NCBI GenBank assembly: GCA_020635255.1
Contig: JACKAC010000001.1
Location: forward strand, 976,814-1,000,813
From: Ignavibacteriales bacterium
Lineage (GTDB): Bacteria; Bacteroidota; Ignavibacteria; Tepidaquicellales; Tepidaquicellaceae
Direction of reading: 5' to 3'
DNA length: 24,000 nucleotides
Positions 1,613-5,708 of the stretch are shown here, piece after piece; within the stretch, counting starts at the first letter, position 1, and each line of letters starts with the position of its first letter. Made by a program: the position numbers and the translations under genes. Below the pieces are notes generated by a model, which did no database searches, was not told the DNA's origin, and saw only the letters and a list, made by a program, of their open reading frames with translations.

Positions 1613-1879
1613 TTTTTTCTTTCTTTAGTTTTGCGGTGCTTTCCTTACCGCTCTGATACAAATTATAAAAAATATGCCCTCTCCCCAAAGAAAGATTTCG
1701 CGATTGTCACAGTAAAATAGGAGATTGTTTTTACATGAGGTTAAGAATTAGGGAAGATGTTTAGAAAAATTAATTATCTATAATTCACCAAGGGTTTAAT
1801 AGATTAACGCCAAAAGTCCTGTAATAATAATTTTTTTTTCTTATTTTTATATTTTTTATATTCATAATTTCACCTATTG

Positions 1880-2569
1880 ATGACTAATCAAATTGATGAA
1901 AAAATAACACTTTTCAAAGAGGACATAAAATCACAGAAACTATCGCCAGAAGAAGTCTTTCAAAAGCATATAATTGATGGTAATTCATTTTTTTATGAAG
2001 TATATCAGAATGATTTAGATAGTGAGTATAAGGCAAAGAAGACTATTACTGATTTTCTGATAACGGATATTAATAATATAAGGATAATTGGTTCGGCCAA
2101 GTTAGGCTATAGCTTGAAGCCAAACAATTTATTTAAGTTGTTTGACGCAAAGTATGAAGAAACTAATCAAAATAAGGATAAGTCTGATATTGATATCGCT
2201 ATTATAGATGATATTGTGTTCGAAAGGATTAGTAAGAAATTATTTGAGTATACGAATTCATATTCTATGTCAGAAAGATGGTCGGAAAATGAATATTATA
2301 ATGGAAATAAATTAGATCGTTTCGAAGGCATTCCTTTATGTTTTAAATATTTTGAATATTATACAAAAGGGTGGTTTAGGCCTGATATGAAGCCTCAAGG
2401 ATTTGAAATATGTGACAATAGTAATTATGAAGAATTAAAAAAAATATTTTTTATGAATCATAAAAGAAAAATTAGTTTAGCAATTTATAAAAATTGGTTT
2501 TATTTTAAGGATTACCATTTAAATAATATTAAAAGCCTTTCATTTAGAATTCAAAGTGAAGTAATATGA
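1880..2569 (+). CDS. Hypothetical protein, possibly a polymerase-beta-fold nucleotidyltransferase-like protein
   Basis: ORF of about 229 aa (ATG at 1880, directly after the TTG at 1877 used by the track) in a strongly AT-rich island. The motif IIGSAKLGYSL...(22 aa)...SDIDIAIID resembles the NTase signature hG[GS]-x(n)-DhDh, but the spacer is longer than canonical, so the fold call is weak. Its stop overlaps the next gene's start (ATGA at 2566-2569). Confidence 0.55.
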   Translation: MTNQIDEKITLFKEDIKSQKLSPEEVFQKHIIDGNSFFYEVYQNDLDSEYKAKKTITDFLITDINNIRIIGSAKLGYSLKPNNLFKLFDAKYEETNQNKDKSDIDIAIIDDIVFERISKKLFEYTNSYSMSERWSENEYYNGNKLDRFEGIPLCFKYFEYYTKGWFRPDMKPQGFEICDNSNYEELKKIFFMNHKRKISLAIYKNWFYFKDYHLNNIKSLSFRIQSEVI

Positions 2570-3723
2570 AGAATGTAAAATTAGATTCTAGCATTCCCGC
2601 AAATAATATTAAAATTATTGAGATTTATAATAAACTAAAAAAAAATGAATTATATTTTGATAGGGGATATCAAAGAAAACTTGTTTGGAGAAAACAACAC
2701 AAATACAAATTTATTGAAACCATATTGCTTAATTTTCCATTTCCAGAGGTATATTTTGCTCCAGGAGAATTGAATACAGACAAACTTTTACTGAGTGATC
2801 AAGTGGTAGATGGACAACAACGTTTAACAACGATTTACAATTATATAGAGGAGAAGGATGTATTTGTGTATGAAAATCTTCCTATTAAAAAGTTTTCTGA
2901 ATTAGGGAAAGGTGAAAAAAATGAATTTCTAAATTATGAAGTATCAGTTAGATACTTGAAAAATGCTAATCATAAACAAATAAAAGAAATTTTTCAAAGA
3001 ATAAATAGTACAGAATATTCATTAAACGCAACAGAAAGAATAAATGCCCAATGGGGAGATAGTGAATTTATTTGTTTCTCGAAGCAAATAGTAGAAGTTG
3101 ACTTAGATATAGATTTAGATTTAATTAATTATAAAATATCTGAAGCAAACAGAACTTTCTTTGTAAATTTTTTCCATAAAAAGTATAATATTTTTACAGA
3201 AAATGATATTAATCGTATGTTAGCGCTTCAGTATATTTTAACTCTAGTAACAACATTGTGCGAGAAAGAATATTTTAGAAGAAACACTAAGGTTCAATCA
3301 TACATAGAAAACTATTTTGATGAATTTATTGATGCTGGGGAGGTTGAATTAAATTTGCTGGAAACTCTCAAATTTATAGATAACTTAAACCTGCCAGATA
3401 ATTCTTATTGGTTTAATAAGGCTAATATCTTTACACTTATAGTGGAGTGTTATAATTATAATTTGACTAGAGTTAATCCTGTTTTATTTAAAATGGAATT
3501 GGAGGAATTGGAATACTATAACTTAAATCATGATTTCGTTTTAATATTTAAAGAGGATATAGAGAGAGGACAACTTAAATTTGCAGAACCTGTAAAAATA
3601 CCTAAGGATATGATTAAGTATTTTGATTTAGCTAAGGAAGCTGTTAACGAAAAGAATTCTAGAGAATATAGGGGGAAAATGGTTAGAGAAATGTTAGATT
3701 CATCTTCAAAAGATGATGCTTAG
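2566..3723 (+). CDS. DUF262 (ParB/Srx-like, GmrSD N-terminal type) domain protein without a recognisable DUF1524/HNH module
   Basis: The N-terminus GYQRKLVWRKQHKYKFIETILLNFPFPEVYF ... VVDGQQRLTTIYNYI matches the DUF262 hallmarks (QR-x-x-VW and DGQQRLTT). No His-Me/HNH motif is seen in the C-terminal half. The gene has a 4-bp overlap with the upstream ORF and sits in the AT-rich island. Confidence 0.8.
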   Translation: MKNVKLDSSIPANNIKIIEIYNKLKKNELYFDRGYQRKLVWRKQHKYKFIETILLNFPFPEVYFAPGELNTDKLLLSDQVVDGQQRLTTIYNYIEEKDVFVYENLPIKKFSELGKGEKNEFLNYEVSVRYLKNANHKQIKEIFQRINSTEYSLNATERINAQWGDSEFICFSKQIVEVDLDIDLDLINYKISEANRTFFVNFFHKKYNIFTENDINRMLALQYILTLVTTLCEKEYFRRNTKVQSYIENYFDEFIDAGEVELNLLETLKFIDNLNLPDNSYWFNKANIFTLIVECYNYNLTRVNPVLFKMELEELEYYNLNHDFVLIFKEDIERGQLKFAEPVKIPKDMIKYFDLAKEAVNEKNSREYRGKMVREMLDSSSKDDA

Positions 3724-3829
3724 ATCTTTTTGGTTATAAAAATAGTTTCTATAAAAAAGTATATATACGTATCTAACCCTTTCTTCTTTGCATTAAAATA
3801 CCCTTCCCCTTAAATTCATATATTGAAAT

Positions 3830-3925
3830 CCCCTCCGATGGGTCAACGACTCGACTCGTAGAGAGGGGTGGTCCCGACAAAGTCGGGAGCGGGTCTATGA
3901 CCTCGTAGAGGGTGGGTTGACTTAG
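3830..3925. repeat. Cluster of GC-rich hairpin repeat modules (dispersed family)
   Basis: tcccgacaaagtcggga (3872-3888) is nearly identical to tcccgacaagtcggga at 11273-11288. gagggtgggttgacttag (3908-3925) is a diverged inverted copy of tagattcaacccacccc, which occurs at 9648, 11254 and 15521. Confidence 0.6.
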
Positions 3926-3958
3926 TATCCACACCCGCAATAAATCACACTACCACGA

Positions 3959-4765
3959 ATGAGATATAGGATCACGCTGTCATCTGACCAAACTCAGACA
4001 ATACCCATAAACTACCAGTACGAACTCTCACGTCTCGTCAATCGTACTATCAAAAACGGCAACCCGCGCCTCTCACGCTTCATACACGGCGGAGGTATCA
4101 GCTTCAACCGCAGGCAATACCGCGCTTTCACCTTCTCGCGCCTCTGGATTCCTAACCGTCAGATACTCAATAACCGCATTCTTATTATGCCCGGTGAGAT
4201 CAAATTCGTTTTCTCCACACCCAGCCTTATGATACGCGACGCTCTCTATGACGGACTCCTAAAGCGTGGTCCCTTCCGCGTCGGCTCCGCGGGCTTCCGT
4301 GTTACCGCGGTCGAAGACCGTGCTCAGCCTTACTTCGGACACCGCGCCCGCTTCACCACTCTCTCGCCCGTGGCGCTCTCCAAAAAGAAGGACTTCCGCC
4401 GTCCGCTCTCCGGCAAAAATGTAAAACAGACATACCTGCGCCCCGGCGACAGCTTCTTCAATAGCTTCCTCAAAAAAAGTCTCGAAAATAAATATATAGC
4501 TCACCGCGTTGCCAGAGGTGAGCCTCTCTCAAAATTCAAAAAACCCTTCTACAGATCTCTCATAGATCATATCAATATACGGGGCAGTCCGCGCCCCAAA
4601 CTCATCACAATAAAAGAAGGAACAAGGCAAAGCTACCGCGTTCCGTGCGCCCTGTTCGAGATCGAACTCACCGGCTCGCCCGCCATTATCGAATTTGCTT
4701 ACGACGCGGGCATCGGAAAACACACCTCGCTCGGCTTCGGATGCCTCGACACTTTGTCATGCTGA
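3959..4765 (+). CDS. cas6: CRISPR-associated endoribonuclease Cas6 (RAMP family)
   Basis: 268 aa. The N-terminus MRYRITLSSDQTQTIPINYQYELSRLV is a typical Cas6 start. An internal TTLSPVALS segment and the C-terminal glycine-rich loop AGIGKHTSLGFGCL (G-x-G...GFG) are also present. Codon usage is host-like (C-ending, matching the local strand bias), so the gene does not look recently acquired. Confidence 0.85.
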   Translation: MRYRITLSSDQTQTIPINYQYELSRLVNRTIKNGNPRLSRFIHGGGISFNRRQYRAFTFSRLWIPNRQILNNRILIMPGEIKFVFSTPSLMIRDALYDGLLKRGPFRVGSAGFRVTAVEDRAQPYFGHRARFTTLSPVALSKKKDFRRPLSGKNVKQTYLRPGDSFFNSFLKKSLENKYIAHRVARGEPLSKFKKPFYRSLIDHINIRGSPRPKLITIKEGTRQSYRVPCALFEIELTGSPAIIEFAYDAGIGKHTSLGFGCLDTLSC

Positions 4766-4809
4766 ACCTTGATTCAGCATCTAGATCATCCCCCCTTTAC
4801 AAAGGGGGG
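4759..4809 (+). terminator. Two consecutive hairpins after the cas6 stop (possible terminator or processing structure)
   Basis: atgctgaa(4759-4766)/ttcagcat(4773-4780) form an 8-bp stem that overlaps the TGA stop. It is followed by cccccctttacaaagggggg (4790-4809). No clear U-tract follows, so a terminator function is uncertain. The second hairpin recurs at 11112-11132. Confidence 0.3.
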
Positions 4810-4948
4810 AAAAGAGGGGGGTTAAATAAATAGCTTACCTCCGTTCTTTAACTAAGGGGGGTTAAATAAAAAACCTCACCTAATCAACCTACAAGCGGCA
4901 GGCTTTCTCCTTAGAAAGCATCCGTTCCGCGTTCCGTCCTTGACGGGA

Positions 4949-4969
4949 TTAGAACATGTGTAAATTGGG
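4949..4969 (+). repeat. 21-bp direct repeat, copy 1 (ttagaacatgtgtaaattggg)
   Basis: Matches 5417-5437 (ttggaacatgtgtaaagtggg) at 19 of 21 positions. The two copies bracket the tandem array. Confidence 0.7.
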
Positions 4970-4986
4970 ACAATAATTAAACGACT

Positions 4987-5042
4987 CGCCGTTGTTGGTG
5001 TTATAGGCGAAATAAAATGAGCCGTCACCAACAACACTATTA
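4987..5042 (+). repeat. 56-bp hairpin-containing direct repeat H1, abutting the left end of the tandem array
   Basis: cgccgttgttggtgttataggcgaaataaaatgagccgtcaccaacaacactatta. It holds a 10-bp perfect inverted repeat, gttgttggtg (4991-5000) / caccaacaac (5026-5035). It recurs at 5654-5708 with a single 1-nt deletion. Confidence 0.85.
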
Positions 5043-5411
5043 CTGTCACCGAACTTTTGCCGTAGGCACTCCTTCGGAGAAATCAACCTCAGAAGGAGAT
5101 TCGGGAAATTATTGTCACCGAACTTTTGCCGTAGGCACTCCTTCGGAGAAATCAACCTCAGAAGGAGATTCGGGAAATTATTGTCACCGAACTTTTGCCG
5201 TAGGCACTCCTTCGGAGAAATCAACCTCAGAAGGAGATTCGGGAAATTATTGTCACCGAACTTTTGCCGTAGGCACTCCTTCGGAGAAATCAACCTCAGA
5301 AGGAGATTCGGGAAATTATTGTCACCGAACTTTTGCCGTAGGCACTCCTTCGGAGAAATCAACCTCAGAAGGAGATTCGGGAAATTATTGTCACCGAACT
5401 TTAAATCAACC
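5038..5411 (+). repeat. Perfect 69-bp tandem repeat: five identical full units (5044-5388) plus a sixth unit with a 22-nt internal deletion (5389-5411)
   Basis: The unit is tgtcaccgaacttttgccgtaggcactccttcggagaaatcaacctcagaaggagattcgggaaattat. Unit starts at 5044, 5113, 5182, 5251 and 5320 were checked base by base and are identical. Each unit contains the 7-bp inverted repeat ctccttc/gaaggag with a 16-nt loop, plus ccgaa/ttcgg pairings. The period equals a typical CRISPR repeat plus spacer, but there is no variable part. Confidence 0.95.
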
Positions 5412-5653: not shown

Positions 5654-5708
5654 CGCCGTTGTTGGTGTTATAGGCGAATAAAATGAGCCGTCACCAACAA
5701 CACTATTA
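5654..5708 (+). repeat. 55-bp hairpin-containing direct repeat H2 (second copy of H1)
   Basis: Identical to 4987-5042 except for one missing A in the loop (gcgaataaaatga versus gcgaaataaaatga). Confidence 0.85.

Follow-up and report, generated by a model that had tools for sequence, protein, structure and literature searches.

A two-gene DUF262 cassette with a nucleotidyltransferase-like partner gene in an Ignavibacteriales bacterium: a candidate defence module outside the named systems

Bacterial proteins carrying the DUF262 domain bind and hydrolyse nucleoside triphosphates (NTPs), respond to DNA modification and activate an effector that is attached to them or supplied by a partner (PMC10952713, PMC12707154). 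The mark depends on the system: GmrSD responds to glucosyl-5-hydroxymethylcytosine (glucosyl-5hmC), BrxU to 5-methylcytosine (5mC), 5hmC and glucosyl-5hmC, and SspE to phosphorothioate (PMC10952713, PMC12707154); the DUF262 protein of Dazbog probably recognises methylated DNA (PMC10952713). NsnA of the Menshen system combines a ParB-type DUF262 domain, marked by the motifs QRxxxW, DGxQR and FxxxN, with a helical, putatively DNA-binding domain termed ParBDB, also present in GmrSD, SspE and DndB (PMC12065111). If unrestrained, DUF262 proteins of the SspE type can arrest growth (PMC12707154), and genes for defence are often nested within other systems of defence (bioRxiv 10.1101/2024.01.29.577857). 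Here, we describe an AT-rich cassette of two overlapping genes, referred to below as gene 1 and gene 2, which is located in a stretch of 24,000 nucleotides (nt) from an Ignavibacteriales bacterium (contig JACKAC010000001.1); the entire stretch is called the window. We consider the cassette as a horizontally acquired, self-contained two-gene module that most likely protects its host from phages or other mobile DNA, with gene 2 serving as sensor and gene 1 as a partner of nucleotidyltransferase (NTase) type, and assign to this reading a probability of about 50%.

The cassette of the window is compositionally foreign. Calculated in 300-nt windows, G+C content falls to 0.20-0.30 over positions ~1650-3750 versus 0.41-0.58 at positions 1-1650 and 0.44-0.57 at 3750-5000, and at third codon positions the G+C content (GC3) of gene 1 is 0.23 and that of gene 2 is 0.21, with 13 other open reading frames (ORFs) of the window ranging from 0.40 to 0.67. 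Inside the AT-rich block there are just two ORFs of at least 60 amino acids (aa), both on the + strand; gene 1 starts with the ATG at 1880 (a TTG is present at 1877), and its stop shares an ATGA with the start of gene 2. The initial annotation of the locus, made from the sequence letters, was thus correct about the fall of G+C across about 2 kilobases (kb), the presence of exactly two genes joined by this overlap and their foreign composition, and it located the element roughly rightly at 1740-3790, although the AT-rich block lies nearer 1650-3800 and its coding part occupies 1880-3723. Its assertion that both genes lack the strand-specific bias at silent sites had to be abandoned, since their GC3 skews (+0.43 for gene 1 and +0.33 for gene 2) have the same sign as those of most other + strand genes of the window, the outlier being the neighbouring cas6 (-0.55). 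Neither flanking direct repeats nor a tRNA gene or integrase were found around the block by repeat scan, tRNA scan and inspection of the called genes of the public contig, on which the 10-kb flanks of the cassette consist of housekeeping genes, cas6 and genes without Pfam hit on record. Promoter- and terminator-like sites, considered as a possible mobile-element signature at the cassette, proved no commoner than in shuffled sequence and were discarded.

Gene 1 and gene 2 constitute an obligate, translationally coupled and co-evolving unit. Scanning of one genome per species revealed 286 places encoding a gene 1 relative; the best 80 were fetched and form the basis of the counts out of 76 or 80 loci given here. 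In all 76 untruncated loci gene 1 is immediately followed by a homologue of gene 2, the other 4 contigs ending too early, so that the neighbourhood survey suggested by the initial annotation as a check of co-occurrence found the DUF262 gene linked to a gene 1 homologue wherever the DNA was long enough to tell. In nearly all related loci the two genes either overlap by the same 4 nt or are separated by a few bases, and three of the 76 appear damaged, L040 by a 3-kb insertion, L066 and L075 by the splitting of gene 2. In the reverse direction, starting from gene 2, three of three homologues are overlapped at their upstream end by a gene of 217-224 aa having no Pfam match, and pairwise identities of the two proteins are strongly correlated over 77 loci (r = 0.91, Mantel p = 0.001). 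In the viral collection IMG/VR, relatives of gene 1 are carried by 22 contigs, and gene 2 adjoins in 20 of 20 untruncated ones; a tblastn search with gene 1 against phage and plasmid collections gave no match. The hosts belong to at least 10 phyla, including Bacteroidota, several proteobacterial classes, Campylobacterota, Cyanobacteria, Firmicutes and Poribacteria, as well as Acidobacteriota, Spirochaetota, Chloroflexota, Gemmatimonadota and Ignavibacteria. G+C content of the pair is below that of the flanks in every locus, reaching 0.37 versus 0.70 in L076 and 0.38 versus 0.60 in another, which makes the compositional anomaly of the window a property of the family. The pair is mobile. An apparent fusion of gene 1 to gene 2 in one viral contig (L111, 5713-7599) was rejected, because the near-identical contig L109 (5713-6462) differs only in the length of two homopolymers (A8/A7 and A5/A4) and has gene 2 as a separate gene with its own ribosome-binding site and ATG; the fused ORF is probably a sequencing error, phase variation being a less likely explanation of the homopolymer difference.

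The attribution of gene 2 to DUF262, proposed at the outset on the basis of its motifs, is now secured by the Pfam model GmrSD_N (PF03235, DUF262), which matches with E = 1.4e-19 and 71.4 bits at a cut-off of 33.2. Among 32 homologues, Q36 R37 ... W41, D82 G83 Q84 Q85 R86 and F143 ... N147 are invariant, as are many basic and polar residues of the C-terminal half, and the PADLOC model of NsnA covers residues 10-379 of gene 2 by profile positions 46-381 of 385 (E = 1.2e-23), a likeness that the initial annotation had not noticed. In a Foldseek search with the AlphaFold model of gene 2, predicted with a mean local confidence (pLDDT) of 84, the top match is BrxU (7p9k, probability 1.00), followed by the ParB-family protein KorB, the TM-score of the alignment with BrxU being low (0.28 normalised by query and 0.20 by BrxU). 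The His-Me nuclease domain DUF1524 (PF07510), which had been reported as missing from the locus, indeed has no match in gene 1 or gene 2 at E <= 1, nor does it occur among the 120 matches listed for gene 2 homologues (precomputed Pfam column). Taken together, the DUF262- and NsnA-like match, the fold match to BrxU and the lack of DUF1524 characterise gene 2 as a sensor-type DUF262 protein without recognisable nuclease.

The product of gene 1 is identical to a public "hypothetical protein" (P0001) from an Ignavibacteriae metagenome-assembled genome and matches none of the models of Pfam, NCBIfam and PADLOC (5027 models, E <= 1), its sole library match being a PHROG of unknown function. Nevertheless, it represents a large family: of 1.84 billion cluster representatives searched with a profile, 1254 matched at E <= 1e-3, 485 of these also at E <= 1e-10, the resulting figure of ~1250 referring to clusters at 50% identity, and within the list of the 150 best matches full-length relatives are single-domain proteins of ~190-280 aa. 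The GS...DID motif pointed out in the initial annotation is real and invariant across the family, as in 51 divergent homologues the residues G71, S72, K74, G76, S78, S102, D103, D105 and G164 do not vary. The 37 closer homologues all keep G164, R167, D169 and P172, and R167/D169 are changed in a few divergent ones (L032, L053 and L058), in which D169 is replaced. According to the AlphaFold model (pLDDT 91.9), the GS motif comes after a strand formed by residues 67-70 and precedes a short helix, and the DxD motif is placed on the strand 104-109, again followed by a helix. That GS and DxD are invariant in the family speaks for an active enzyme and against a scaffold.

In the mode of action that we favour, gene 2 would be a DNA sensor, binding DNA and reading the modification on it, which is probably methylation of cytosine or a mark related to it, with NTP binding and hydrolysis serving as a switch by analogy with GmrSD, BrxU, SspE, Dazbog and NsnA. 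Gene 1, produced in fixed proportion to gene 2 via translational coupling, would be the catalytic partner in a complex with it, most likely a divergent NTase of polymerase-beta type delivering the output; candidates for the latter are the synthesis of a nucleotide signal, the nucleotidylation of a target such as a macromolecule and a regulatory modification of the DUF262 protein. It would thereby take the place that belongs to the DUF1524 nuclease, HEPN or ABC-ATPase/nuclease partners in known DUF262 systems. We infer all four components of this scheme, that is the role in defence, the division of labour between sensor and effector, the NTase chemistry and the mark being sensed.

The surroundings of the pair provide a hypothesis on the mark. 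Clustering of four genes on each side of it in the 76 loci revealed one dominant neighbour, identified by Pfam as a C5-cytosine DNA methylase, and with a profile made from the methylases of related loci this enzyme was detected within ~4.4 kb of the pair in 32 of 80 loci. By a rough estimate from the few such genes per genome, a C5 methylase would be met in well under 1% of random 12-kb stretches. In 20 loci it abuts gene 1 from upstream on the same strand with practically no gap, giving operons of methylase, gene 1 and gene 2, and in 5 loci it is found at most 250 nt downstream of the pair. The pair is strongly associated with C5 methylases and MvaI/BcnI restriction genes, which the initial annotation had likewise missed, and enriched beside or inside C5-methylase restriction-modification loci. 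A restriction gene of the MvaI/BcnI family lies directly downstream of the pair in four of them (L029, L030, L036 and L038), where the pair is nested between this gene and the methylase gene, directly upstream in L013 and in convergent orientation in L165. Moreover, 16 genome loci, mostly of Bacteroidota, and one viral contig encode a long gene 2 (~500 aa) with an additional C-terminal domain of 130 residues, termed here domain X, which corresponds to residues ~370-505 of gene 2 in L016, L019, L020, L022 and others. Domain X is homologous to the N-terminal domain of the adjacent MvaI/BcnI proteins (E = 1e-30 to 1e-38), is fused also to the N-terminus of an HNH nuclease in L013, retains invariant T..T...K...DA, H.Y..Q..G and Y......GD.R, and has no match in Pfam and the PDB; it may be a reader of a DNA site or of its modification. 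All 16 genome loci with domain X have a methylase directly upstream, in L053 in the form of fragments. The latter locus (Chryseobacterium, L053:4952-5898) contains the upstream C5 methylase in three pieces of 181, 140 and 74 aa next to a gene 1 devoid of the RPD motif, and may represent the three-gene operon in decay. Other neighbours of the pair include AbiEii, AbiGi, an integrase and a relaxase on an integrative element of Myroides, as well as a Dam-type methylase and McrBC. The window itself has the minimal pair, with no C5 methylase (profile search over 24 kb), MvaI/BcnI gene or domain X in it.

A more daring version of the favoured scheme, which we regard as unlikely, is an immunity that reads modification and dispenses with nucleases, in which a ParB-like NTP switch scans cytosine methylation and controls a divergent NTase whose output replaces cleavage; this output could be a nucleotide signal or the nucleotidylation of DNA, tRNA or protein. 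If so, the operons of methylase, gene 1 and gene 2 would be restriction-modification-like systems with the NTase as their "R" activity. Equally unlikely is the leading rival explanation, by which the pair is the restriction side, or the part reading specificity, of a methylase-dependent system, the C5 methylase marking self DNA and the DUF262 protein checking the mark, with the pair of the window either orphaned or acting in trans with a methylase encoded elsewhere. Such a reading draws on the 20 loci with methylase abutting gene 1 on the same strand, on the upstream methylase (or its fragments) of every genome locus with domain X, on the sharing of this domain by long gene 2 and adjacent MvaI/BcnI enzymes, on the match of the PADLOC model "Type II restriction enzyme" to the DUF262 part of gene 2 (E = 6.8e-8), and on SspE as a precedent for the sensing of a self mark. 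However, in 48 of 80 loci, including that of the window, the fetched DNA (up to 6 kb per side) carries no C5 methylase, and these loci weigh against it, as a system attacking unmarked DNA is dangerous without a linked methylase. Besides, the methylase may stand upstream, downstream or convergently, which looks like two separable modules, and the three-gene form includes no nuclease.

As for the chemistry of gene 1, its assignment as a divergent NTase seems to us somewhat better founded than the opposite. The pattern hG[GS] followed on the next strand by [DE]h[DE]h, typical of polymerase-beta NTases, is present in gene 1 as G71 S72 and D103 x D105, and the model shows the order helix, strand, GS, helix and further strand with DxD and helix, as expected for the core of this fold. 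Scanning each family member singly (37 members against Pfam, 51 against NCBIfam and PADLOC) revealed that NTases are the commonest weak match in all three libraries. In Pfam it is Polbeta, with 17 of 37 members, NTP_transf_2 being matched by 4, DUF6036 (an NTase family) by 2 and other families once each; the sub-threshold matches to Polbeta span the DxD strand and the next helix. In NCBIfam the first place belongs to the MntA adenylyltransferase antitoxin (10 of 51 members, best E = 0.015), and in PADLOC to the "Cyclase" oligonucleotide-cyclase models of CBASS (cyclic-oligonucleotide-based antiphage signalling systems), hit 7 times with best E = 9e-4. The initial suggestion of an NTase-like protein is therefore upheld as regards the invariant motifs and these recurrent weak matches, but it received neither a match at a curated threshold nor an NTase fold in Foldseek.

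A number of observations weigh against the scheme of a sensor coupled to an NTase. The best match to Polbeta, that of member P0044, reached 16 bits (E = 0.0088) at a cut-off of 26.9. The gene 1 model, confident as it is (pLDDT 92), found no significant counterpart in the PDB and BFVD by Foldseek, the best E-values being 3.4 and 0.14, respectively, with TM-scores of ~0.1-0.3. PDB profile searches with three alignments of the family (A1, A3 and the core-only A7) gave one match with E = 1 to a CD-NTase (6e0k), and the rest were unrelated proteins such as a Rossmann-type dehydrogenase and a cyclohydrolase. When the family was compared by hhalign with AadA (SDIDL) and KNTase (SDIEM), GS and DxD came in register at a probability of ~1%; this comparison is not usable as evidence. 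No bona fide MNT genes, sought as a source of an NTase reference profile, were found in the fetched loci, and the spacing between GS and DxD is ~29 residues (~20 in short forms) versus the usual 10-15. Methylase-free loci, the window among them, have heterogeneous, often housekeeping flanks and no conserved third gene; the support from "defence islands" is therefore uneven. Domain X hints at a tie with restriction enzymes closer than mere co-location, which a model of sensor and NTase leaves unexplained. Finally, the bare pair has no recognisable toxic effector or nuclease, and this is the main gap in every version.

The prominence of MntA among weak matches brings up a toxin-antitoxin-like arrangement, in which gene 1 either silences the DUF262 protein by nucleotidylation as an MntA-type NTase or is itself a toxin of MenT/AbiEii type held in check by the DUF262 protein, so that infection or loss of the cassette would free the toxic partner and result in abortive infection or addiction. 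The small bicistronic operon with overlapping genes, the mobile, AT-rich and patchily distributed cassette, the adjacency of AbiEii and AbiGi on the Myroides element and the growth arrest caused by unrestrained SspE-type DUF262 proteins (PMC12707154) are all in line with this arrangement, and MntA as the type VII antitoxin is the commonest NCBIfam match. Yet all these matches are sub-threshold, a HEPN partner is missing and no PADLOC model of AbiEii or another NTase toxin was matched at E <= 10. We consider the arrangement improbable. Just as improbable is that gene 1 is no NTase at all and has a novel or unrelated fold, e.g., that of an adaptor with a structural role or of a metal-dependent nuclease of a new kind using DxD, with the motifs convergent: the confident model lacking PDB and BFVD counterparts, the long spacing of GS and DxD, the candidate third carboxylate that is not universal and the nuclease otherwise wanting in the bare pair would fit, but NTases lead the weak matches in three independent libraries, most others being matched by 1-4 members, the predicted order of elements fits the NTase core, and no Toprim or nuclease model appears among the weak matches.

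Positions of the module, of its motifs and domains and of the features discussed with it are collected below.

Table 1. Features of the cassette and its surroundings (positions in the window unless preceded by a locus number).
Feature	Position	Strand	Basis
AT-rich block carrying the cassette	1650..3800	.	Composition profile
Gene 1, 229 aa, unannotated family with polymerase-beta-NTase-like motifs	1880..2569	+	ORF
Gene 1 motif G71-S72-A-K74-L-G76-Y-S78 (hG[GS]-type, after strand beta1)	2090..2113	+	Invariance, model
Gene 1 motif S102-D103-I-D105 (DxD, strand beta2)	2183..2194	+	Invariance
Gene 1 motif G164-W-F-R167-P-D169-x-x-P172, candidate third carboxylate	2369..2395	+	Homologue alignment
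ATGA overlap of gene 1 stop and gene 2 start, coupling both genes	2566..2569	+	Direct sequence reading
Gene 2, 385 aa, DUF262 and NsnA-like C-terminal helical domain	2566..3723	+	Pfam, PADLOC, Foldseek
DUF262 (ParB/Srx-like NTPase) domain, gene 2 residues 19-162	2620..3051	+	Pfam span
DGQQR motif of gene 2	2809-2823	+	Inside DUF262 domain
C-terminal all-helical domain, gene 2 residues ~165-379, "ParBDB" by NsnA homology, putatively DNA-binding	3058..3702	+	PADLOC NsnA span; model helices 167-379
Solitary cas6, context only, outside the module	3959..4765	+	Pfam Cas6 domains; PADLOC Cas6b, E = 2.7e-47
Domain X-bearing nucleases (MvaI/BcnI or HNH)	L029:7661-8839, L030:7699-8883, L036:6208-7389, L038:5473-6657, L013:4475-5983, L013:1737-2582(-)		

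The cas6 gene next to the cassette, taken in the initial annotation as a sign of a defence island, does not carry that weight. It has native-like G+C content, public contigs show no other cas genes within 10 kb of it, and the pair adjoins cas6 only in copies of the window's own locus, with no Cas6 in any other pair locus. In reverse, none of 50 loci encoding Cas6 relatives has the pair. A search through Cas6 for an "empty site" in relatives met only distant Cas6 proteins (<=32% identity) and gave no comparison. The adjacency of cas6, confined to this genome and set among housekeeping flanks, is weak support for a defence island. Just upstream of cas6, at 3836-3925, two copies of CTCGTAGAG(A/G)GG(G/T)GG are placed 47 nt apart, and a GC-rich hairpin TCCCGAC-AAA-GTCGGGA is situated between the two CTCGTAGAG copies. 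On the other side of the gene, a repeat array (5039-5402) comprises 5.3 copies of a 69-nt unit which are 99% identical, with the "spacers" identical too, and so is not a normal CRISPR array. The number and layout of its copies differ among independent assemblies of the locus, with five matches in the window, one in L001 and L004 and two in L003; the array region is bracketed by a direct repeat of ~48 nt (4987-5034 and 5654-5700), and the array has no match in Rfam. Just outside the AT-rich block, a 103-aa ORF on the opposite strand (1301-1612) has native-like G+C content and is a called gene in all public copies of the locus; the public contigs record no Pfam hit for it, and our own Pfam scan gives only a weak match to the CtsR C-terminal domain (E = 0.005).

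Among described systems, Menshen (NsnABC) shares with the pair the build of its sensor, since gene 2, like NsnA, joins an N-terminal DUF262 domain with three motifs to a C-terminal helical ParBDB. Genes for NsnB (an ABC ATPase with DUF3696) and NsnC (an inactive PIN domain with a nuclease) are absent from the window and from every related locus, and in their stead the pair has an upstream protein of ~200-230 aa unrelated to either; accordingly, no AAA_15, AAA_21 or DUF3696 domain was found within 10 kb of the cassette, and the 76 loci have no such conserved third gene. With GmrSD, BrxU and SspE the pair has in common the DUF262 NTPase module, BrxU being the best fold match of gene 2, and the frequent placement beside or inside restriction-modification loci (PMC4619093), but the DUF1524 His-Me nuclease is theirs and occurs in neither protein of the pair. 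Dazbog (DzbAB) and PD-T4-2 are likewise two-gene systems combining a DUF262 protein without DUF1524 with an unrelated partner. Gene 1 corresponds in PADLOC neither to DzbB nor to the HEPN partner PD-T4-2_B, both of which are missing from the eight PADLOC models matched by any of 51 members of its family at E <= 10, and gene 2 matches PD-T4-2_A over the N-terminal 80 residues only (E = 1.7e-9) and leaves DzbA unmatched at E <= 1. Finally, MntA of type VII toxin-antitoxin systems and the CD-NTases of CBASS have, as gene 1 does, hG[GS] and [S]DxD on consecutive strands, whereas the pair comes without HEPN partner, CBASS-type effector and significant NTase or fold match, and its motif spacing is longer.

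A pair of NTase-like and DUF262 genes has no description in the literature searched, which leaves most subscription journals outside its reach, and together with the unmatched gene 1 this agrees with the initial view that the pair is not a named system. If gene 1 is an active NTase, the sensing of DNA modification would be linked here to nucleotidyl-transfer chemistry, a link that the same literature does not report for any DUF262 system, and the integration of the pair into operons with C5 methylase and MvaI/BcnI genes provides a concrete testable hypothesis on what the sensor reads. DUF262 is a recurring sensor module of bacterial immunity, which in GmrSD, BrxU, SspE, Menshen, Dazbog and PD-T4-2 is combined each time with a different output partner; the pair described here adds to them a large partner family having no Pfam, NCBIfam or PADLOC model, and it would work like this family of DUF262-sensor defences but belongs to none of its named systems.

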